Assembly: GCA_019057815.1 (NCBI GenBank)
Contig: JAHLWR010000019.1
Coordinates: 1 to 64,000 of the forward strand
Reading direction: 5' to 3'
Source: Candidatus Heimdallarchaeota archaeon
Lineage (GTDB): Archaea > Asgardarchaeota > Heimdallarchaeia > Heimdallarchaeales > Heimdallarchaeaceae
Length of the DNA stretch: 64,000 nt
Positions 3,417 to 63,851 of this stretch are shown one piece after another. Positions within the stretch are counted from its first letter, which is position 1. Each line of letters starts with the position of its first letter. The translations under genes were made by a program, and so were the position numbers. The notes beneath the pieces are model-generated. The model was given only the letters and a program-made list of their open reading frames with translations. It ran no database searches and was not told where the DNA came from.

Positions 3417-3587
3417 GGTCAACAATCTTGTTTCAGCATTAATAAATATCTGGTCTATAAACACTTCAAAATAATTCAAAACTTCCTTCCGACAAAATAA
3501 CTTTGTAGGCTGTAAAAACATTTCCTACAACACAATTATTAAATACTGCGTGGGGATACATTATTGAGAAGAAAAGGGGTTAAACAT

Positions 3588-4154
3588 ATGAGTCAACGCA
3601 TTTTCAAAATTTCATTGCTTGGCGAAGGAGCAGTAGGAAAAACTAGTCTACGAAGAACCTACATGGGTGAATCATTCACTTCAGGATATATGATGACGGT
3701 AGGTGCCGATTTCGCTGTTTCCAAGCTCTCTGTCGATGAAATTGAATTTACTTTACAAATTTGGGATCTTGCAGGTCAACAACGTTTCTCAGCTGTCAGA
3801 GAAGTTTATTACAGAGGTACATCAGGAGCGCTTTTAGTTTTTGACATTTCACGTCCTGAGACTTACGAAGCTATTCCTAACTGGCTTGCTGAATTAATTC
3901 GCAACAACAAGAATCGTATTGTTCCACTAGTTTTAATTGGTAACAAAGCTGATTTAAGGGAATCTACACCTTATTCCGTTCCTGCTAGTTATGCTCAAGA
4001 TTATGCACAAACACTTTCTACATGGAGTGGGTTCAATGTTCCATATTTAGAAACATCTGCGCTAACTGGATTGAATGTTGAAGAAGCCTTTAAAGTACTA
4101 ACTTCACAAATAATTCAATACTATGAACAACAAAAAATGAAAGCTTCATATTAA
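3588..4154 (+). CDS. Rab-like small GTPase (Ras superfamily)
   Basis: G1 GEGAVGKT, G2 TVGADF, G3 WDLAGQ, G4 GNKAD, G5 ETSAL; no C-terminal prenylation Cys; probable start ATG 3588. Confidence 0.92.
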   Translation: MSQRIFKISLLGEGAVGKTSLRRTYMGESFTSGYMMTVGADFAVSKLSVDEIEFTLQIWDLAGQQRFSAVREVYYRGTSGALLVFDISRPETYEAIPNWLAELIRNNKNRIVPLVLIGNKADLRESTPYSVPASYAQDYAQTLSTWSGFNVPYLETSALTGLNVEEAFKVLTSQIIQYYEQQKMKASY

Positions 4155-5619: not shown

Positions 5620-6342
5620 TTATTCATTGTAATAGGAGAAGAAAAGGTGTAAAATCCCTTCTAATTCATCTTCTGTGCAATAGGCTACAATATGATCTTT
5701 TTCATCCTTAAATCCGAAAACAGCGAGTTTTTCTTTGCTTTCTTTGGGTAAGGTTATTCTATATCGCATACCTTCTTTCTTTATAACAATAATTCCAATT
5801 TTGGTTCTAATTATCGCTTTTTTTGCAAAAGTGCTAATTTCCAGATTTCCGAAAGTTCCCCATTTTTCTAACAAGTTTCTTCTCTTCATGAAATAATTTT
5901 GACTGATGTATCTACCTCCAGAAACACCTATTAATCCTATAGATGCAAGAGGAAGTATTATGATAGATGCTTCAGAGAAAACAATTCCAAATATATCTCC
6001 CTTTCCAAGATATGCATTTTCCACTAAAGTAGAATCTGATACTGTTCCGTCAGTGGATTGTGTTTCAGCTGTAGTGTATGAATCCGTAACAGTAGTATTT
6101 GTAGTGGTTGTAGTAGTTGTAGTGGTTGTAGTAGTTGTAGTAGTTGTAGTAGTTGTAGTAGTTGTAGTAGTTGTAGTAGTTATTCCATTTGGAGTATCAC
6201 CAGGAAGAGCAAGGAAAGTAATTGAAATAAAAATCAAAGCTGTAAACATAACTACTATCATGTAGAATAGAGTTCTTTTCCAGTTAAATCCCTTCTTTTC
6301 CATTTGAATTAAAGGAGATATTGATTTTGGTTTGCTTTTCAT
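5620..6342 (-). CDS. Two-TM membrane protein with a poly-Thr loop
   Basis: TM segment, ~27-Thr run, second TM, basic C-terminal domain; 4-bp overlap with the upstream wHTH gene. Confidence 0.75.
   Translation of the reverse strand: MKSKPKSISPLIQMEKKGFNWKRTLFYMIVVMFTALIFISITFLALPGDTPNGITTTTTTTTTTTTTTTTTTTTTTTTTTTNTTVTDSYTTAETQSTDGTVSDSTLVENAYLGKGDIFGIVFSEASIIILPLASIGLIGVSGGRYISQNYFMKRRNLLEKWGTFGNLEISTFAKKAIIRTKIGIIVIKKEGMRYRITLPKESKEKLAVFGFKDEKDHIVAYCTEDELEGILHLFFSYYNE
6101..6181. repeat. Coding 9-bp tandem repeat (GTAGTRGTT, about 9 copies) encoding poly-Thr
   Basis: Visible directly in the sequence. Confidence 0.9.
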
Positions 6343-6859: not shown

Positions 6860-7996
6860 ATGGTAAGCTCACAAGCTGAACTTTACATCAAAATTGTCCA
6901 ATTATCTATTATTTTTATTATTACATCATATTTTGTTTTTAGAAGAGTTAAAGATAAAATTATCGGATTTAACTGGTTCATTTTCATTTTTGGAATGGCG
7001 ATAGTTCAATGTATCATAGAACTTGCACTTTATTTTCCAATGAAAAACAACCCAGAAGCCTTTGAAAATATAAGCTCAATACAAGAGATTCACATTATTC
7101 CATATGCTGCTGGATTGTTTGGGCTTTTTCTATATTGTGAGTTAATACGCAATTCTAAGCCTAATACTCTATTCTTCGGAATAACTACAGCTTTATTGGG
7201 AGGGTATATAGCCATCTATTTCATAGAACTTGGTTTCAATTTACAAAGTGCTTACCCTCCAGAATATAGAGTCAGTAGATTTTTCTTTAGCATTTTCCAA
7301 GCACTAGTACTTGCAGAAGCTCTTTACACATTCATACAAGATGCTATAAAAGTCGAACACAAGAAATTAAGAAATTTAAGCATTTTCATCTCTGTGGCTT
7401 TTTCAATAGCTTTTCTTTCAGCACTCTACAAAATTGTTGAACAATCTACATATTTGATAACAAAAACAGATCCAGCATTCCAAATTTATGGAGCGATACC
7501 ATTTTCTCTAACTTTCGGAATTATGGCAATAGTATTTATTTTCAACCCATTTTACGTTTATTTATTACCAACAGTCCTCAATAAAGTAATTGTTATCAAT
7601 GATGCTGGAATCCTGTTTTACTCTGTTAATATAGGTAAAGATATTCCTGATGATGAGTGTGAAGATGAACTGTTCTCTGGAATAGTAGCAGCCCTTAAAT
7701 CATTCCTTGAAGATACAACAGGGTCTACATCCGATCTCCGCAAAATAAGTTTCAGAGACAAGAAAATGATTATAGCTCAAAACAAGGAAAAAAGGGTTTC
7801 AACTATAATTCTTGGGGACAGTGATAGTTTCATACTTAATACAGCTGCACAACATTTTACAAATGCTTTCTGTGAAAAATTTGAGAAACATATAGAAAAA
7901 TTTGATGGGACTGTAGATATCTTTGAAGAGGCAACTAGCATTGTCAAACGAATCTTCCCTTTTGTTCCACCAGAAGAGATTATTGAGGCTAAGTAG
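6860..7996 (+). CDS. 7-TM membrane protein fused to a C-terminal longin-like domain
   Basis: Seven hydrophobic helices, then VIVINDAGILFY..DELFSGIVAALKSF..LRKISF..FCEKF..FDG, the pattern of Asgard longin domains. Confidence 0.7.
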   Translation: MVSSQAELYIKIVQLSIIFIITSYFVFRRVKDKIIGFNWFIFIFGMAIVQCIIELALYFPMKNNPEAFENISSIQEIHIIPYAAGLFGLFLYCELIRNSKPNTLFFGITTALLGGYIAIYFIELGFNLQSAYPPEYRVSRFFFSIFQALVLAEALYTFIQDAIKVEHKKLRNLSIFISVAFSIAFLSALYKIVEQSTYLITKTDPAFQIYGAIPFSLTFGIMAIVFIFNPFYVYLLPTVLNKVIVINDAGILFYSVNIGKDIPDDECEDELFSGIVAALKSFLEDTTGSTSDLRKISFRDKKMIIAQNKEKRVSTIILGDSDSFILNTAAQHFTNAFCEKFEKHIEKFDGTVDIFEEATSIVKRIFPFVPPEEIIEAK

Positions 7997-8016: not shown

Positions 8017-9174
8017 TCATTTATTACCGTTCGTATTTTTTAATTTGCATTTTTTGATTTCTTTCTCAAAAGAGAAATGATACTGAAATAGAGCTAATTC
8101 ATCTTTCATTTCAACTAATTCATCTTGAATGCTTTTATTTAAAGGGACTCCTTGCTCTCGAATTCTTTGTTCAGCTTCATACTCCTTCTCACCAGCAGTA
8201 TAGATTCTCTCCTCATCTGGAGCTTTTTCCGAATTTCGTAAAGCTCTACATATATTCCCTGAAATATTTTTAAAAGAATCTAAATCTATGAAATGTTCGA
8301 TATCAATGGCAATAAAGAAATGTCCAAGATAGAAGTGCGTTTTTTCTTCTTTTTCATCTAATCCAGTGAGATCTTTTAGGAATTTGCCATTTTGCAAAGC
8401 AGCAGAGAGTATTTCCACGACTGTAGAATAACCATATCCCTTATGACCAGAGAGTTTTTCACCAATTCCTCCCAAAGGCAGAAGAGCAGCTTGTTTTAGA
8501 ACTAAATCTAGAAGCACACCTTTAGAATCTGTTCTAGATTCACCGGTCAATTTGTCTATTATAACTCCTTCAGGAAGAGGTTTATCTTCTCTAGAATAAA
8601 CTTCTATTTTTCCTCGTTGAATAATAGATGTGGAGCAATCTAGAACAAAAGGGAAATCTTCATCTGTAGGAAAACCAAAAGTTAAAGGATTTGTTCCCAA
8701 CATCCCCTCAACACCGAAAGTTGGAGCAACACTTGGTCTAGCATTTGTTCCAGTTATTCCAATACAACCTTTTTCTATAGCCATCAAAGGATAATAACCT
8801 GCTATTCCATAATGAGTACTATTTCGTACTGTAACCATACCTAAACCATATTTTTTAGCTTTTTCAATAGCCATTTCCATACTTTTAAAGGAAATAAAAT
8901 GACCATTACCATGATTGCCATCAATAACTGCTATTGCATCCTGATCTTTTACAATCTCAAAAATAGTCTTGATTTTGTGTTGACCATTTCTCATCCTATC
9001 AAAATACATCTTAAGTCTTTGAACTCCATGAGAAGTAATTCCTCTTAAATCAGAAGCAATGAGAATATCAGCGCTAACACCAGCTTCTTCCTCAGGAGCT
9101 CCAAGACCAATATAAACATCTTTCATAAAAGAATGAAGCATATCAACAGGAATATAAGAAACATTATCCGACAT
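8017..9174 (-). CDS. Ldh2/ComC-family (malate/L-lactate/L-sulfolactate) dehydrogenase
   Basis: SDLRGITSHG, NSTHYGIAGYY, GTNPL, LDCSTS, GHKGYG motifs. Confidence 0.88.
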   Translation of the reverse strand: MSDNVSYIPVDMLHSFMKDVYIGLGAPEEEAGVSADILIASDLRGITSHGVQRLKMYFDRMRNGQHKIKTIFEIVKDQDAIAVIDGNHGNGHFISFKSMEMAIEKAKKYGLGMVTVRNSTHYGIAGYYPLMAIEKGCIGITGTNARPSVAPTFGVEGMLGTNPLTFGFPTDEDFPFVLDCSTSIIQRGKIEVYSREDKPLPEGVIIDKLTGESRTDSKGVLLDLVLKQAALLPLGGIGEKLSGHKGYGYSTVVEILSAALQNGKFLKDLTGLDEKEEKTHFYLGHFFIAIDIEHFIDLDSFKNISGNICRALRNSEKAPDEERIYTAGEKEYEAEQRIREQGVPLNKSIQDELVEMKDELALFQYHFSFEKEIKKCKLKNTNGNK

Positions 9175-9319: not shown

Positions 9320-9505
9320 CTATTTATAATGCTCTATCATAGATTTCATAAGCATTTTAACTGCATATTGAGCCTCTTCAGAAAGATCAGAAAGAGTTTT
9401 ACCACATTTAGGACAAGGCTCGAAACCATCAGGATCTGATTTTTTGAATTTTTCTCCACATGCAAAACAATAGACTGTTTCTGGCAATCCACTCATTTTA
9501 ACCAA
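9320..9505 (-). CDS. Small zinc-ribbon protein
   Basis: CFAC...CPKC. Confidence 0.7.
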   Translation of the reverse strand: MVKMSGLPETVYCFACGEKFKKSDPDGFEPCPKCGKTLSDLSEEAQYAVKMLMKSMIEHYK

Positions 9506-9699
9506 TGTACCATTTGCTATTAGATTAAATAAATCTTATGTAAAAAAAGAAAATTAGGAGTTATCTATAAACAAAGAAATTGCTAATATATGAAAAGCCA
9601 GAAAACCTAGACAAATTACTGTCGAAAACTAAAGAAGAGATTAATTGTTGACTTTATATCTTCTTTTATCTATAGTCTTGATTTTTGTACATTTTTGTT

Positions 9700-9959
9700 G
9701 CACAGCAATCTTGCGCTTCAAGAACCCCTTCGAGGGGGAAGCAATCATCGCACCGTTGAAGATGGACTATAGCACCTTAGCCACAGAAACTGGAGAAGAC
9801 AAACCTTTTCCGCTCATGTGGAACATGTGACCTTGTAAAGGTCATCTAACCTTCCTTCTAGGGAGACGAACCCAGGGGGAAGGACCCTATCATACGTCTT
9901 GTTCTTTAGAGATTATCCTGACACACCGTGCCAGCAGTGATGGTTCCACACCACTGTAC
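9700..9959 (-). ncRNA. Unassigned structured RNA of about 260 nt with a probable pseudoknot
   Basis: GC-enriched intergenic island; terminal helix GUACAG/CUGUGC; several hairpins whose G-U pairs work only on the - strand; 8-bp loop pairing UGUGGAAC/GUUCCACA; TATA box 25 nt upstream. Confidence 0.65.
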
Positions 9960-9976
9960 TATTATTCTGATAATCT

Positions 9977-9984
9977 TATTTAAA
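9977..9984 (-). promoter_or_regulatory. Archaeal TATA box for the putative ncRNA
   Basis: TTTAAATA beginning about 25 nt upstream of 9959. Confidence 0.5.
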
Positions 9985-10027
9985 GCTAACAAAATTTGTA
10001 CAAAAAAGTCTTCCATGAAATAGCATT

Positions 10028-10588
10028 TTATTTACTCATTTCTAGTTGATTAACTAGCCAAGTAAACGCTTCATAGACTCCTCGACCATTCAATGCACTA
10101 CAATCAAAAACAGTAAAAGTTCGATCTCTCATTTCTATGTGAAGTCCTAATAATTGAATTAGCAATGGAGCTTGAATTGCTTCTGGTAAATCTTGTTTGT
10201 TTGCTATAATCAATACTGGAATTTTTTCTAAATATGGATTGTTGAAGAGATGAGTTTTTAAAACATCTCTCGCTTCTGGAAGACGTTCAATATCCGCAGA
10301 GTCTATAACAAAGATAGCAGCAGAACTCCCCGCATAATGTATATCCCATAAAAATCTAAATTGGCTCTGACCTGCAACATCAACTATTGTTATACCCCAT
10401 CCTTCAAAATTAATTGTATCTATATTTTGACCAATAGTTGGTACAGATGGTTGATATTCTCTTGTCTTCACATATTTCATTAGAGTTGTTTTACCTGCTG
10501 AATCTAACCCTAAAACTAGTATTTTTGCTTTTTTTTCAGCTCTTAGTTTCTTTAGTAACCACTTAGAGAAGGATGAAATTGCACTCAT
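10028..10588 (-). CDS. Arf/Arl-like small GTPase with an N-terminal amphipathic helix
   Basis: GLDSAGKT, PTIG, DVAGQ, NKQD, CSAL; N-terminus SSFSKWLLKKL. Confidence 0.92.
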   Translation of the reverse strand: MSAISSFSKWLLKKLRAEKKAKILVLGLDSAGKTTLMKYVKTREYQPSVPTIGQNIDTINFEGWGITIVDVAGQSQFRFLWDIHYAGSSAAIFVIDSADIERLPEARDVLKTHLFNNPYLEKIPVLIIANKQDLPEAIQAPLLIQLLGLHIEMRDRTFTVFDCSALNGRGVYEAFTWLVNQLEMSK

Positions 10589-15681: not shown

Positions 15682-16764
15682 CTAATTGAAGAAAAGCTGG
15701 TCTTTAGTAAGATATGGGAACATTTTTGGCAGTATTTCTACTGCTGCTGAAAATGGTGAAACATCTCCAGTAAAGCTTTTTATCTCTTCTTGAAACTTGG
15801 TATAAAATTCTTCCACGAAAACTTTATGCGAGTTTCTGAAAAGACGCATATCTTTGTCTACAATCAATAAACCTGTTATATCTCCGTGAGTATGAGTTAA
15901 AATAGTTCTTCCTTCGAATTTTATTGAAAGTAGATTCTGATTTGGAGCTTGTGCTACATCACCTATTAAAGAAGTAAAAGCGGTTATCACTCCTCCAGCA
16001 AGCGTTTGATCCGTTTTCCTTTCATGATATTGGATATCTATCATAGTGGCGCCTGTCTTGTTGATTATGAATAGGCGATAAAATGACGCTGTTGTTGCAT
16101 AGACGAATGAAGGCCATATAATATAAATCATTAACAGACCTATTATCGATACTCCAAAACCTATTGCTCCATATATGTCGAAACTCTCCAATACGTGTTC
16201 AAGTATTTCTGTTATTGATACAACAAAACTTACCACAAACATAAGGAAAAACATCGATGTTGGAAGAGCAAATTTAGTTTTCCATGATTTGATAAATAAA
16301 ACAGCGCTTCCAACCATACAAAAAGTAAAGATGTATAATTGATAAGTATCAAAAATAATCATAAATAGCCAGTCGTTAACATGTGTTGCATTTTTGAGTA
16401 TTGAACCAGATATAGTCTCGACAGTATAAACTGTCAGAAAGGAAACTATAGTAGAAATGCTTACCCATAGATAAATTGTGCTCAATCCCATGAAATAAGA
16501 AATGTGCAAGAATAGTGATAATAATATTAGAGCGTAAGGTATAAAATGAATAAATGCGAGAGGATCTGTCTCAGAATTAAGATCTGTTAATTTGTAAACA
16601 AGAATTTCAATAATACTCTGTATCGCGCCAAAAACTAATGTCGACATTAACCAATGGTAACCTCTTATTCCTTTTCTATACCTTCTGTAAAGGAAAATAG
16701 AGAGAACTATAAGCATAAAACTCAGTTGAACAATCTTTATAATTAAATCAGTATCATTATCCAA
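15682..16764 (-). CDS. 7-TM membrane protein with C-terminal longin-like domain (paralogue of 6860..7996)
   Basis: Shared motifs IKIVQLS, HxIPYA, IYGAI, PxxVY, and longin tail LFIINKTG..LAGGVITAF..FYTKF..FTGDVSPF. Confidence 0.7.
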   Translation of the reverse strand: MDNDTDLIIKIVQLSFMLIVLSIFLYRRYRKGIRGYHWLMSTLVFGAIQSIIEILVYKLTDLNSETDPLAFIHFIPYALILLSLFLHISYFMGLSTIYLWVSISTIVSFLTVYTVETISGSILKNATHVNDWLFMIIFDTYQLYIFTFCMVGSAVLFIKSWKTKFALPTSMFFLMFVVSFVVSITEILEHVLESFDIYGAIGFGVSIIGLLMIYIIWPSFVYATTASFYRLFIINKTGATMIDIQYHERKTDQTLAGGVITAFTSLIGDVAQAPNQNLLSIKFEGRTILTHTHGDITGLLIVDKDMRLFRNSHKVFVEEFYTKFQEEIKSFTGDVSPFSAAVEILPKMFPYLTKDQLFFN

Positions 16765-49604: not shown

Positions 49605-50152
49605 ATCGAATCACCATACCAATTAATTAACTCTGTAGCACAAGAATGTTGTCCACCTAAAAATGAACAAATGCTCAAGTGTTCTGTGTCCCCAACAAAT
49701 AGATTTAGGGAGAATGAAGGAAGGTTCATATTTTCTGATAACCTATTTATTACACCAAACCCTCCTTCCTTACACTCTTTTCCCTTTTCACGCATGTAGC
49801 AGGGGGAATAGTGGGGAGAGAAGAAATTGTAAAAATTAAAGAAACAGTCAATACCACATTCTTGCTCTTCCCAGAAATACACAGTTGACGTGAACTGTAC
49901 GAACTTAAAATTCTCAAAAAAGTTAAGTTGAAAATGTGTTCTTAAATAATTATAAAAGTTGCCATCAAACTGTTTTGAAACAATTTTGTTTTGAGTTTTC
50001 ATTGTTGTCATACTTCTTTGTTTGTAGGAAGATAGTTTGACGGAACCTTCGTTATAATTACTAGTTGAATAAAAAGTTTCATATTTAAAGGTGGTAAAAT
50101 TTTTTTCTTCCAAAAAACCCTCAGTATTTGTGTAAAAACTCTCTAAAAACAT
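49601..50152 (-). CDS. Hypothetical Cys/aromatic-rich cytoplasmic protein
   Basis: Lies between the MinD and protease genes (4-bp gap, 4-bp overlap) with an AAGGAG SD. Confidence 0.6.
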   Translation of the reverse strand: MFLESFYTNTEGFLEEKNFTTFKYETFYSTSNYNEGSVKLSSYKQRSMTTMKTQNKIVSKQFDGNFYNYLRTHFQLNFFENFKFVQFTSTVYFWEEQECGIDCFFNFYNFFSPHYSPCYMREKGKECKEGGFGVINRLSENMNLPSFSLNLFVGDTEHLSICSFLGGQHSCATELINWYGDSI

Positions 50153-50156
50153 CTTC

Positions 50157-58758: not shown

Positions 58759-61315
58759 TTTTTCACCTTGTTATCCTTACACTTCGACGGATGGGTTTTT
58801 GATAAGAAGATAGGCAAGTGTAGTGTTTTTATCAATTTATATATCTATTGTCTCATATTTAAAGAAGGAAAAAAAGCTATTTCTTTCTTCGTTGTAGCAC
58901 CACTAAACCAAAGACTAAAAATAGAAAAGTTATCGCAGGAAGGAGAAGAGAGAGCGTTTGAAATTCTGACATAACCTCAGAAACAGTAAATGAGTGATAT
59001 AAACCAACGTTGTCATCGATAGCTTCATTGTGGTCAGCAGAATTATCTATAGCTTTAATGTAATATTCAATTGTGTCACCAGCTGTAAAAAGACCAATAG
59101 TTACGCTGTAAAGATTACCACTTATAAGAGTCATACTAACTTCTAACCAAGTTCCACTATTGACTCTATAGTGGAGAGTAACGGATTGCACACCAGACGC
59201 GTCAGTGATGGTAACATTGATACTAATAATATCTAGTTCTGTAGGTGTAGAGGGAGCGTGAATAATATCAACAATTAGTGGAGGATCAATGTCTACAATT
59301 ACTCCAAGAGGATATATGTCAACTGAACCAGCTGAACCATCAATATCATAAGTACCTGTTCCTGACCAATCTGACCAATCGTTGCCATATTGTGTTTCAG
59401 TATCATACCAAAAGTTGTCAAATCCTTCATCATACGCTTGTGAAGTTCCTCCTAGTCTATTGTCTACAAAAGTATTATGGTGAATAAAATTATTATCAGA
59501 ACCATATCTTAAGTATACTCCATAGCCTACATTTTCTTGTAGAACATTGTAAGTAACGACACAGAAATCCGAAGAACTAAGATAGATGCCATAATCGTTG
59601 TTGTTGCAAGTGTTGTTTGTAACAGTAGAAGAATCAGAAGAGCTAAGATAGATGCTTTCCCAGTTGTTACTGTTACAAGTGTTGTTTGTAACAGTAGATC
59701 TACTAGAATCTTCAAGATAGATACCGTATTGGTTATTGTTGCTACATGTGTTGTTTGTAACAGTAGAAGAATCAGAAGAGCTGAGATAGATGCCAAAATA
59801 GTTGTTGCTGCAAGTGTTGTTTGTAACAGTAGAAGAATCAGAAGAGAAAAGAAATATACCCTCGATATTGTTACTACAAGTGTTGTTTGCAACAGTAGAA
59901 CTAACAGAATACCGAATATAGATACCGATTTGGTTATTGTTATTACATGTGTTATTTGCAACAGTAGAAGAATCAGAAGAGCTGAGATAGATGCCAAAGT
60001 AGTTGTTGCTACAAGTGGTATTAATGATAACTGAATTTGAACAGTAGTAGAGAGATAGACCAGTTCCAGCGTTATTTAATATTTGGTCACGTATTGTAAT
60101 ATTAGTACAATTAACTAATATTAATTGACCATAAGGTTCAGCAATTATCGTAGAGTCTAGGTTAATGTAAAAACCCATTTTTTTCTCATTCACCCAATTA
60201 TTCTCGACAGTATATGATAAATAAGCATCAACCGTATCTTCCCTTATCTCTAAACCGCAATTAGTAAAAGTGTTGTTTACAACAGTAGAACTAACAGAAT
60301 ACCGAAGATAAATGCCTTCCCAGTTGTTATGGTTGCACGTGTTGTTTACAACAGTCGAATTATCAGAATAGTAAAGATAGATGCCATAGCTATTATTGTT
60401 GCTACAAGTGTTGTTGGCAACAGTAGAACTACCAGAAGCGGAAAGCACGATACCTAAATTGTTGTTGTTGTTGCATGTGTTATTAATGACAGTAGAACTA
60501 CTAGAAGAGTAAAGCAAGATGCCGTCCCAGTTGTTGCTACAAGTGTTGTTGGCAACAGTAGAACTACTAGAAGAGTAAAGCCTGATACCATTCGCTCTAT
60601 TGCTACACGTGTTATTAGCAACAGTCGAATGACTAGAATAGTAAAGATAGATGCCATAGTTGTTATTGTTGCAAGTGTTGTTTACAACAGTAGGAGAAAC
60701 AGAATAGTCAAGCAAGATGCCACAACCATTGCTATTGCAAGTGTTGTTTACAACAGTAGAACTCCCGGAATACAGAAGATAGATGCCATCATAGACATTG
60801 TTACTGCACGTATTGTTGACGACAGTTGCTGTTCTATAAGCTACCCCATAGATATGAATTCCATAATTGCCTGCATCAACATAGCAGTTACGAACAGCAA
60901 AATATCTCGTTGTACCAGTAATATAAATACCATTGACATCAGTTGTTGTGATATTGTAATCCTCAATAAGATAAGGATCATCAACAGTTCCTGCACCTGG
61001 AAAACCGTAATCGGTAAAATTACCATCTGAAGTAATGTATATTGGGTCATGTGGGATTAAAGAGGATAGTGACAGATCCCTTTCATTTTTTTCTGTTATT
61101 TGTATTCCTTTAGTTATTCCTTGACTAAGATTTAGTATTAACACCACTGTTACTATTAATCCTATTGCTGTTCTTATTGAATAATTTGAAATTTTCTTCA
61201 TTTTTTCACCTTGTTATCCTTACACTTTGACGAATGGTTTTGATAAGAAGATAGGCAAGTGTAGTGTTTTTATCAATTTATATATTTTTAGTTTTATATT
61301 TAAAGAAGGAAAAAA
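58600..61315. repeat. Direct duplication of about 270 bp covering promoter, SD and signal-peptide coding sequence (about 58600-58876 and 61045-61315)
   Basis: Near-identical DNA including non-coding ttcaccttgttatccttacactt..gataagaagataggcaagtgtagtgtttttatcaatttatatat. Confidence 0.85.
58877..61201 (-). CDS. Intact NosD/CASH beta-helix surface protein with Ig-like domain and anchor
   Basis: Two blocks of GIYLxxSxxSTVxNNTCxNN repeats, DPPLI..DASGV..DNS Ig-like domain, TM plus QRRKK; SD AGGTGA. Confidence 0.9.
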   Translation of the reverse strand: MKKISNYSIRTAIGLIVTVVLILNLSQGITKGIQITEKNERDLSLSSLIPHDPIYITSDGNFTDYGFPGAGTVDDPYLIEDYNITTTDVNGIYITGTTRYFAVRNCYVDAGNYGIHIYGVAYRTATVVNNTCSNNVYDGIYLLYSGSSTVVNNTCNSNGCGILLDYSVSPTVVNNTCNNNNYGIYLYYSSHSTVANNTCSNRANGIRLYSSSSSTVANNTCSNNWDGILLYSSSSSTVINNTCNNNNNLGIVLSASGSSTVANNTCSNNNSYGIYLYYSDNSTVVNNTCNHNNWEGIYLRYSVSSTVVNNTFTNCGLEIREDTVDAYLSYTVENNWVNEKKMGFYINLDSTIIAEPYGQLILVNCTNITIRDQILNNAGTGLSLYYCSNSVIINTTCSNNYFGIYLSSSDSSTVANNTCNNNNQIGIYIRYSVSSTVANNTCSNNIEGIFLFSSDSSTVTNNTCSNNYFGIYLSSSDSSTVTNNTCSNNNQYGIYLEDSSRSTVTNNTCNSNNWESIYLSSSDSSTVTNNTCNNNDYGIYLSSSDFCVVTYNVLQENVGYGVYLRYGSDNNFIHHNTFVDNRLGGTSQAYDEGFDNFWYDTETQYGNDWSDWSGTGTYDIDGSAGSVDIYPLGVIVDIDPPLIVDIIHAPSTPTELDIISINVTITDASGVQSVTLHYRVNSGTWLEVSMTLISGNLYSVTIGLFTAGDTIEYYIKAIDNSADHNEAIDDNVGLYHSFTVSEVMSEFQTLSLLLPAITFLFLVFGLVVLQRRKK

Positions 61316-61378
61316 GAGAAAGGGTGTATGTTTTGCTCTTGTTAATACTTCTTTTCTATGCAGTTTCTAACAGCTAGT

Positions 61379-62836
61379 CTACTTCTTTTTCTTCTTTGAG
61401 ATTATCCTTGTGAGTATTAAGGGTACTACTAATATTAGGAGAGTAAATGTAAAGTTTAATGGATTTTCATCTGTAGTCGATTCAACTGAATGTTCAGCAA
61501 GGTTCATCAAGAGGATATAAATCTTCTGTACCAGTTGAACCATCAATAGCATAAGAACCTGTTCCTGACCAATCTGACCAGTAATTACCTTCCAAAGTTA
61601 AAGTATCATACCAATAGTTGTTAGTACTATCATCAAGAGCTTGGGAATTTCCTTTTAGATTATTGTCTACAAAGGTATTATGGTGAATAAGATTATTATC
61701 AGAACTAAGGAATAAGTATACTCCATATTTGATATTTTCTTGTAGAAGATTGTAAGTAATGACACAAAAATCAGAATAGAAAAGCAAGATACCTTCCCAG
61801 TTGTTGTTACTGCAAGTGTTGTTAGCAACCGTCGAACTATTAGAAAGGGAAAGAGAGATTCCTCTGTAGTTGTTGTTGCAAGTGTTGTTGGCAACAGTCG
61901 AACTACTAGAAGACTCAAGACTGATGCCATGCTTGTTATTGTTTTCGCACGTGTTGTTAATAATAGCTGAATATGTACAGGAGTAGAGAAATAGACCAGT
62001 TGTAGCGTTATTTAATATTTGGTCACGTACAGTCACATTAGTACAATTAACTAATATTAATTGACATTAAACTGGTTCAGCAATAGTAGTAGAGTCAAGG
62101 TTAGTGTAAAAACCCAGTTTTTTACCATTCACCCAATTATTCTCAACAGTATATGATAAGTAAGTGTCAACTGTATCTTCTCTTATAACCAAACTACAAT
62201 TAGTAAAAGTGTTGTTTGCTACAGTAGAGCTACCAGAAGAGTAAAGCAAGATGCCGTCATCACCATTGTTGATGCACGTGTTATTTGCAACAGTCGAACT
62301 TCCAGAAGAACGAAGCAAGATACCTCTGTTGTTGTTGTTGCACGTGTTATTTGCAACAGTCGAACTTCCAGAATTGTAAAGCTTGATGCCCCAGTAGTTA
62401 TTGCTGAATATGTTGTTAATGACAGTCGAACTATCAGAAGACCAAAGATAGATTCCATCCCATTGATTGTTGCTACACGTGTTGTCCTCAATAGTTACAG
62501 TACCATCAGCTGCATCATCGATATAAATGCCATAATCACCTGCGTCAATATAGCAGTTACGAACAATGAAATATCCCGTTGTATCAGTGATATAAATACC
62601 ATAGTCAGTCCATGTTGTAATGTTATATCCCTCAATAATATAAGGATCTTCAGCTGTTCCTGTTCCTAGAAAAACCTCAAAATCGCTATCACTTGTTATT
62701 TCAATAGGATCATGAGGAGTTAGCTCTAACGAAGTAGGTCTATAATTATTCTCTTGGGCAGTTATTTGTACATTGATATTCGATGCATACATTGACAATA
62801 TCAGTATTATAGTACTATTATTGTTCTCTTTTTCAT
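61379..62836 (-). pseudogene. Beta-helix surface gene with three lesions
   Basis: Frameshift in the signal peptide (MKKRTIIVL/IILILSMY, near 62810); in-frame TAA at 62067 (EPV*CQL against EPVYGQL in a paralogue); frameshift near 61499 before the anchor ..DENPLNFTFTLLILVVPLILTRIISKKKKK*. Confidence 0.85.
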
Positions 62837-63029
62837 AAAATCACACTTATTGAAACTCTTTATCGAATAAATATTTTGTGCAACAAATTCTTCGTTAATA
62901 ATCATAACTGGAATATTTTTCGAGTTTATAAACCAATTTGAGAATAATAGGTCAAACCCATCAGTTCTAATATCTTCCTATCTTCAAAAAACCCAAAAAG
63001 AAAGCATAAAATTACAGAAGGACTATTTC

Positions 63030-63443
63030 ATGATGGAAGAACTCTTAGAACGTCAATATTCAGTAACAGTCAGTATTCTAGAAAAGGTCATCTTTATCTT
63101 TTTCACTCTTCTTTCTGTTATTGCTTCTGTTCTTTCATTTACTGATTCTTCTGATAATTCTTCTTATTCCCTTGTTTTCAAAATCTTCATCGTTTTCTTA
63201 ACTCTCTTAATTTTCCTCTATTCTTTCATCATCACAGTCCTTATTCCTGTAATTGCCAAGAGTATTCTTCCAAAAATAGTTGACTTGCTTAACTGCAATT
63301 TTACTTCTTTTAGGTTTTTTTCTACTTATAGATTGGAATCTTTCCAATACAAGAATTTCCAAGAGAGAGATCTATGTGAGGATATTAGATTTGAAGAGAA
63401 TAAGGATAAAGAGGATTTATCAATTTCAGGAGGTATTAACTAA
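63030..63443 (+). CDS. Small two-TM hypothetical protein
   Basis: Two hydrophobic segments. Confidence 0.5.
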   Translation: MMEELLERQYSVTVSILEKVIFIFFTLLSVIASVLSFTDSSDNSSYSLVFKIFIVFLTLLIFLYSFIITVLIPVIAKSILPKIVDLLNCNFTSFRFFSTYRLESFQYKNFQERDLCEDIRFEENKDKEDLSISGGIN

Positions 63444-63445
63444 CT

Positions 63446-63712
63446 ATGTTGTGGGAATTAATTTTCGAAATTGAACATAAAGTCAAAGGAATAACTGTCG
63501 GTTTAGCCAATTATAAAATCTCTACTAGAGATGATTTGGAATATTTTTTGAGTCATTGTGTAAATGAATCTAATACTCCTGATGAACTATGGGAATATAG
63601 AGCTGTGCTTTTAGATGAAAATGGTAAAAAAGTAATTTTATCCGATCTTAATGAAATAATTATTAACAAAGAAAAATGCTTTGGTTCTGATACTATTCCA
63701 ACTAGCGTTTAA
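63446..63712 (+). CDS. Hypothetical protein
   Basis: GGAGG SD upstream; starts 2 bp after the previous stop. Confidence 0.55.
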   Translation: MLWELIFEIEHKVKGITVGLANYKISTRDDLEYFLSHCVNESNTPDELWEYRAVLLDENGKKVILSDLNEIIINKEKCFGSDTIPTSV

Positions 63713-63851
63713 AGTTAATAGTATTGAAATATCTGAATAAAGAAAAAAAAAGAACAAAAATAGGTGTTAACTCCACCCACATTGGTGACAGTTAATAATT
63801 TATGAACAATTAGCTTAAATATTGTTATAGCTTAAATCAGGTGACTGAACT

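Follow-up and report, generated by a model that had tools for sequence, protein, structure and literature searches.

The omegaRNAs of TnpB proteins are encoded in the 3'-end region of tnpB elements, and in the omegaRNA of ISDra2 a pseudoknot joins positions -5 to -3 with positions -103 to -105 (PMC10097598). Stand-alone omegaRNAs acting in trans have been described (PMC10691335; PMC10055086), and PATE-like derivatives of IS200/IS605 elements often keep the omegaRNA and need both TnpA and TnpB in trans (PMC10055086). In IStrons of the IS607 type, the core dinucleotide forms the end of the TAM, which is not identical to the end of the scaffold (10.1101/2023.11.20.567912). Protein-less omegaRNA elements are already a known type.

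Here, we describe a gene-less element in a 64,000-nucleotide stretch of DNA (the window; positions 1 to 64,000 of contig JAHLWR010000019.1, assembly GCA_019057815.1) from a Candidatus Heimdallarchaeota archaeon. A first-pass annotation of this DNA had singled out part of the element as an unassigned structured RNA with its own promoter. We consider it highly probable, at roughly 0.88, that the locus is a non-autonomous mini-element of a Heimdallarchaeal TnpB family, possessing both ends, a TATA-like box and a complete omegaRNA used in trans, and carrying no protein gene. Its features and neighbours are as follows.

9672-10016, minus strand: the whole protein-less element, 345 bp including the AT at both ends.
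10015-10018, minus strand: target motif TCAT at the left junction, the predicted TAM; its AT is the common core.
9995-10007, minus strand: left sub-terminal repeat, a T-run plus palindromic TGTACA, 7 nt inside the AT; conserved in the MITEs and in the TnpB elements.
9977-9984, minus strand: TATA-like box TTTAAATA, with a predicted transcription start near 9956-9959.
9830-9959, minus strand: 5' RNA module of about 130 nt specific to gene-less elements and without counterpart in TnpB-coding copies; four hairpins, namely 1 (9956-9935), 2 (9934-9918, then GAUAAUC), 3 (9883-9850) and 4 (9844-9828).
9672-9829, minus strand: omegaRNA (reRNA) scaffold core common to the TnpB elements, assigned by homology and covariation.
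9781-9821, minus strand: stem CCAC (9821-9818)/GUGG (9784-9781) around an inner hairpin; it uses bases of the pseudoknot proposed in the first-pass annotation.
9759-9778, minus strand: hairpin AAGGUG/CAUCUU (helix 3; 99.3% paired, 3/6 pairs compensated).
9769-9765, minus strand: UAGUC, the loop of that hairpin and 5' arm of the conserved pseudoknot.
9681-9691, minus strand: right sub-terminal repeat TGTACAAAAAT, 7 nt inside the terminal AT.
9673-9677, minus strand: GACUA, 3' arm of the guide-adjacent pseudoknot (helix 4; 99.2% paired, 3/5 compensated).
9652-9671, minus strand: host flank, the predicted guide, about 16-20 nt, a length taken from known TnpB systems.
10028-10588, minus strand: Arf-family GTPase gene (Pfam Arf, E 2.9e-46), a neighbour only.
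9320-9505, minus strand: small zinc-ribbon ORF with weak, sub-cut-off Pfam matches, a neighbour only, 167 nt beyond the element.

The element resembles several described systems and is identical to none of them. As with the stand-alone omegaRNAs of OMEGA systems (PMC10691335), it is mobilised without a nuclease or transposase of its own, has a flank-derived guide, and coexists with nuclease-coding copies in the same genome; unlike these, it resides in an Asgard host, belongs with a Cas12f-like clade of TnpB proteins confined to a single family, and possesses a dedicated 5' module, its use in trans being proposed by analogy. The PATE-like IS200/IS605 derivatives of Geobacillus stearothermophilus (PMC10055086) are likewise protein-less and retain both ends, but no sub-terminal Y1-type DNA stem-loops were seen when the ends of our element were inspected, its repeats are symmetric around the AT, and a related single-contig genome (G004) has elements while no Y1 gene was found there. 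A two-base core at the ends and at the target, with no target duplication, is shared with IS607, IS1535 and the C. botulinum IStron (PMC6188088, 10.1101/2023.11.20.567912), and, as in the IS607 family, the TAM ends in the core and the scaffold end is one or two bases off the TAM. Unlike IS607, the core is AT rather than GG, no copy contains tnpA, and the inverted repeats, which in IS607 lie at different distances, are equidistant from both ends. Finally, as in the ISDra2 omegaRNA (PMC10097598), the RNA overlaps both the 3' end of tnpB and the right end, and a pseudoknot connects the 3'-terminal bases of the scaffold with a segment some 100 nt further upstream; in our element a hairpin loop supplies the 5' arm, unlike in ISDra2, and the likeness is one of architecture, with sequence similarity not expected. 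By analogy, the element would act like a stand-alone omegaRNA or a PATE, without being a PATE proper (it has no Y1-type ends) or, given its AT core, symmetric repeats and lack of TnpA, an IS607 element proper.

The window element is repeated, and inserts after TCAT with one common AT. Its bounds, 9672 and 10016, are where similarity to the copies on contigs C43 and C27 of the source genome (G000) stops, and the empty sites of sister copies in a related genome (G001) agree. These two full copies, identified in a DNA search, extend over about 350 bp (C43:256652-256995, 91%; C27:9294-9636, 89%), and one 3' partial copy lies on contig C1. The other copies occur in unrelated genomic contexts, one within a gene that is left intact in G001. 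Because a T-run and the palindrome TGTACA lie 7 bases inside each AT, the ends are symmetric sub-terminal inverted repeats; the minus-strand RNA region between them is a GC-rich island (0.42-0.50, versus about 0.3 in the surroundings). At the window locus, the left end was seen after the Arf gene in none of eight relatives inspected, and the predicted empty site corresponds to a 9-nt match after the Arf gene of G001, which carries little weight because the flanks have diverged. A pattern search of metagenomes returned mostly chance matches and about seven true elements.

In G001, the empty sites corresponding to the C43 copy and to a tnpB element on C1 both read TCAT/GG, with AT present once. 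Among left junctions, T at -2 and C at -1 were each found in 24 of 25 distinct sequences, the AT itself being fixed by the search pattern. A 3-bp ATG core is compatible with those two empty sites, but right flanks, including that of the window copy, also begin with A, T or C. Scaffolds end in CTAT, CGAT or TGAT, as against TCAT at the left junctions. Since the TAM of the IS607 IStron ends in the core dinucleotide and is unlike the scaffold end, TCAT is by analogy the predicted TAM, the flank at 9671-9652 the putative guide, and the empty site its putative target. No convincing second target for the window guide was detected in the genome.

The structure of the scaffold is supported by covariation. 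In 25 distinct sequences, pairing within five helices amounts to 97.4% of cells, and compensation is seen at 18 of the 28 pairs, a level reached by 0 of 500 shuffles, while slid controls gave 38-49% pairing; because the sequences are related, these counts, which are of cells and not of events, overstate independence, and the slid control retains that relatedness. Both-side changes were observed in 4/7 and 6/6 pairs of helices 1 and 2, in the region of the CCAC/GUGG stem, and one element copy has the first pair of this stem broken. The pseudoknot UAGUC/GACUA, which in the window joins positions -6 to -2 with about -98 to -94, a spacing close to that in ISDra2, appears elsewhere as UCGAC/GUCGA, UCAAC/GUUGA and UCACC/GGUGA (the last at locus L004). 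Conservation ends sharply after the terminal AT, leaving a conserved scaffold and a variable flank, the predicted guide.

These results confirm a good part of the first-pass annotation and revise the rest. The motifs that it listed are all present on the minus strand where it placed them; it was right that the RNA is structured and non-coding; and the TATA-like box that it reported, TTTAAATA at 9984-9977, lies 25 nt before G9959. The RNA is absent from Rfam: no family matched the annotated interval, even at E<=10, no match over the whole window reached the gathering score, and nothing relevant was found on 11 homologous loci; ARAGORN detected no tRNA. It had also been described as lacking RNase P and SRP signatures, and neither covariance model matched at the locus; canonical genes are found elsewhere in the genome (RNase P RNA on C42, 149.5 bits; SRP RNA at C43:220804, 90.5 bits, just below the cut-off), so that the window RNA is not needed as either. 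A diverged RNase P RNA and an SRP Alu domain were rejected as its identity, as was a group I intron, for which a loop resembles the S element, yet no partner P7 strand was seen.

Several of the individual helices require correction. Hairpins CUGGCAC/GUGUCAG and UGACCU/AGGUCA are maintained in close copies. The 8-bp pseudoknot UGUGGAAC/GUUCCACA is complete in the window copy only; 7/8 pairs form in three close copies, its middle is broken in a fourth, and a fifth lacks it. Dinucleotide shuffles contain a perfect 8-bp complement with a spacing of at least 30 nt in 33% of cases, and in the 25 homologues the CCAC of GUUCCACA pairs with the downstream GUGG, with compensation. The conserved pseudoknot was missed because the annotated interval ends 28 nt before the end of the element and excludes the partner GACUA (9677-9673). 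The proposed closing helix GUACAG/CUGUGC competes with a longer hairpin, CAGUGGUG/CAUCACUG, and loses (pair probability 0.0 versus 0.94-0.98), and helices UAAUCU/AGAUUG and AAGAC/GUCUU are uncompensated and broken in diverged copies. The assignment to the minus strand stands, fixed by homology to tnpB 3' ends; folding energy is indecisive in this respect (z -1.72 for minus, -3.00 for plus).

The ends of the window element also bound tnpB-only elements, 1.4-1.5 kb in length with a single ORF, in six relatives. In the source genome, one such element (C1:40720-42144) interrupts a host gene that is whole in G001, with one AT at the empty site. Its intact tnpB gene (C1:40773-42062) encodes a protein of 430 aa that scores above the NCBIfam guided_TnpB cut-off (124.6 versus 100 bits), has Cas12f/TnpB as its nearest solved structures, and retains all of the nuclease residues D186-E278-D369. 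The tnpB ORF overlaps the RNA region, its stop lying about 50 nt before the element end. Over its 3'-terminal 158 nt, the window element has 64-76% identity to the corresponding ends of six tnpB elements, and comparison of these sequences shows them to be the conserved, covarying right-end RNA of TnpB elements. A covariance model of the scaffold has matches in 10 of 61 genomes, all of one family, with 17 and 19 in two single-contig genomes. Relatives of the family assign the host to the Heimdallarchaeia. The C1 protein is the only intact TnpB of the family in the assembly and has its own scaffold, to which that of the window is 69% identical; as the closest scaffold (76%) is in another genome, use in trans within the source genome is assumed.

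Other elements in these genomes have related designs. At least three further TnpB-only families in the source genome display the same geometry of AT, 7 nt and inverted repeat, with different repeat sequences and unrelated TnpBs (C39:27527-29290, C30:68195-69970, C26, C40 and C10; C33:134718-136151, C1:106506 and C44:26306; C48:183536-184905). A second gene-less element, of 234-240 bp (C27:13308-13541 and about ten copies on C44, C1, C43, C30, C26, C48 and C5), has the same TGTACA ends around an interior of its own, one part of which matches the 3' end of a different TnpB family; judging from this element, ends and guide RNA appear to be modular. A 355-bp deletion derivative of the TnpB family with CCCCAC ends (C38:45774-46128) has its promoter fused directly to the right-end RNA and illustrates a simpler way for a stand-alone guide RNA to arise. 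In genome G007, locus L044 has its left flank in common with L053 and its right flank with L048 (L043, L048 and L053 being in G004), which suggests that recombination between two element copies rearranged the chromosome.

The alternative that fares best, and that we nonetheless regard as improbable, is that the element is a passive relic, mobile by virtue of its DNA ends, whose RNA is unused by any TnpB here and whose structure is inherited rather than maintained. The cognate parent element was not found in the source genome, where the scaffold is 66-69% identical to local TnpB elements; one copy, as noted, has a broken pair in the CCAC/GUGG stem, and relatives contain many eroded right ends. 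Against this, three gene-less subfamilies whose mutual identity is only 53-67% have all preserved the TATA box, a stem like hairpin 2 and the pseudoknot, with compensated sequences particular to each subfamily, and shorter end-only derivatives exist, so that the RNA is not required for being flanked by ends.

The putative promoter region is similarly retained: TTTAAATA or TTTATATA is present in 9 of 9 MITE copies examined, and TTTTTATA or TTTATATA occupies the equivalent place in TnpB elements. A sigma-70 promoter scan, whose model is unsuited to archaea, was at chance level. In the 5' module, hairpins 1 and 2 are paired in 98% of cells in 11 sequences, with variable loops and one fully compensated pair. 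A positional likeness of the module to the ADxNxxRN codons of tnpB was noticed; derivation from the tnpB 3' coding region was rejected, as nhmmer gave no match and all but one of 16 local alignments had z<=1 (the exception, 2.4). Our guess is that the module may be a stabilizing or protein-binding domain. An RNA with hairpins 1 and 2 and a TATA box also exists in six genomes of another genus (L008:450-640, L009, L013, L025, L027 and L032), between orthologues of the window genes at 6860-7996 and 8017-9174, its stems conserved and its loops variable. No right end follows it at this fixed locus in the six genomes; five of them also match the scaffold model, and the RNA is therefore most likely a truncated relic.

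Copies of the element family contain no transposase, and the searches for one acting in trans, which covered IS607 TnpA, Y1, IS110, IS630, tyrosine recombinases and Cas1, were largely negative. MerR-type IS607 TnpA was not found in either single-contig genome, and the IS607 elements of the source genome lack the window-element ends. Y1 transposase was not found in four of six element-bearing relatives, including single-contig G004; among the element-bearing genomes searched it is present only in G000, G001 and G007, and the ends of the G000 Y1 element differ. IS630 had no match in six genomes. XerA-type tyrosine recombinase was not found in G000, G001, G004 and G017, and is present in two of six genomes. 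A Cas1 search of element-bearing genomes yielded strong full-length matches, none of them in G017. A genome-wide scan for the same end geometry revealed, among the matches followed up, only TnpB-only or non-coding repeated elements. Beside this, locus L055 (C27:145985-148550 of the source genome) contains an IS607-type tnpA with stops next to a 652-aa TnpB-like ORF with His in the third RuvC motif.

Host-like serine recombinases are encoded in 29 of 31 family genomes and are, among the enzyme types searched, the only candidates found in every genome tested. We tentatively suggest, as an idea with the odds against it, that the transposase-free TnpB group uses such vertically inherited chromosomal serine recombinases (usually two paralogues) on its AT-centred ends, and that gene-less copies gained a 5' module replacing the part that overlaps tnpB. 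The differing repeat sequences argue against one strict enzyme, and the serine recombinases are thus a lead only. In G000 and G001, element ends adjoin a serine recombinase gene, but this arrangement is not kept in four other genomes and hence gives no evidence of a link. The source genome encodes serine recombinases of 240-280 aa at C1:82593-83312, C24:157170-157940 and C21:46265-47101 (L058-L060), whose upstream regions have a short motif, ACCTTCTT, in common. Where no tyrosine recombinase was found, these host-like enzymes may do the job of Xer.

A different role for the RNA, as an IS110/IS1111-type bridge or seek RNA that guides a recombinase and whose loop UAGUC recognizes the donor end, appears very improbable. 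Sub-terminal inverted repeats, a 2-bp core and the absence of target duplication resemble IS1111 (PMC11187229), and the loop does match the right end; but the IS110 transposase domain PF02371 was not found in the six genomes searched, two of them single-contig, the RNA is located at the 3' end of tnpB genes, the complementarity of loop and end is explained by the omegaRNA pseudoknot, and the flanks have only TCAT in common, with no longer target. The first-pass proposal, in which the locus would encode a novel non-coding host RNA, a ribozyme or a riboswitch-like leader for the zinc-ribbon gene, is just as hard to credit, and is refuted for the element as a whole: the lack of an Rfam match, the TATA-like box and the related 5' module at a single fixed position in the six genomes of the other genus would fit it, but this is a dispersed, multi-copy MITE in unrelated contexts, an outcome that the annotation itself had listed as refuting it, with one copy in a gene unbroken in G001, it was not at the orthologous site in the relatives inspected, RNase P and SRP RNAs lie elsewhere, and its 3' half is homologous to TnpB right ends.

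For a TnpB mini-element, we propose the following life cycle. A transcript would begin near 9957, span the scaffold and extend 16-20 nt into the flanking DNA, and would load in trans onto the family TnpB encoded on C1. After excision, the rejoined site would consist of TCAT plus the guide sequence and would be cut by TnpB, and repair from an element-bearing copy would restore the element. The occupied site would be spared because the scaffold ends in CTAT and not TCAT. Movement itself would proceed through exchange of 2 bp (AT), with a recombinase provided in trans; a serine recombinase is the most plausible kind.

Elsewhere in the window, a 7.4-kb segment (49682-57036) that includes a ParA/MinD-like ORF and an HTH ORF has a 91% duplicate on C38 and a partial one on C39, and an internally repeated coding region (56500-63800) with many paralogous matches genome-wide probably represents a repeat-rich surface-protein family. 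A membrane-protein ORF at 5620-6342 contains a run of about 30 threonines. The genes at 6860-7996 and 15682-16764 encode paralogous multi-pass membrane proteins with a soluble C-terminal domain, and lie near the Rab-like (3564-4154) and Arf-like (10028-10588) GTPase genes.

The analysis removes a candidate new Asgard ribozyme and provides, for an uncharacterized clade of compact Cas12f-like TnpB proteins, an omegaRNA model tested by covariation, a predicted TAM (TCAT) and natural guides, which together make the nuclease directly testable. The natural stand-alone form represents an omegaRNA released from overlap with a coding sequence. Given the unusual ends and the lack of a detected transposase, several unrelated TnpB families in this lineage appear to have a mobilization route in common.
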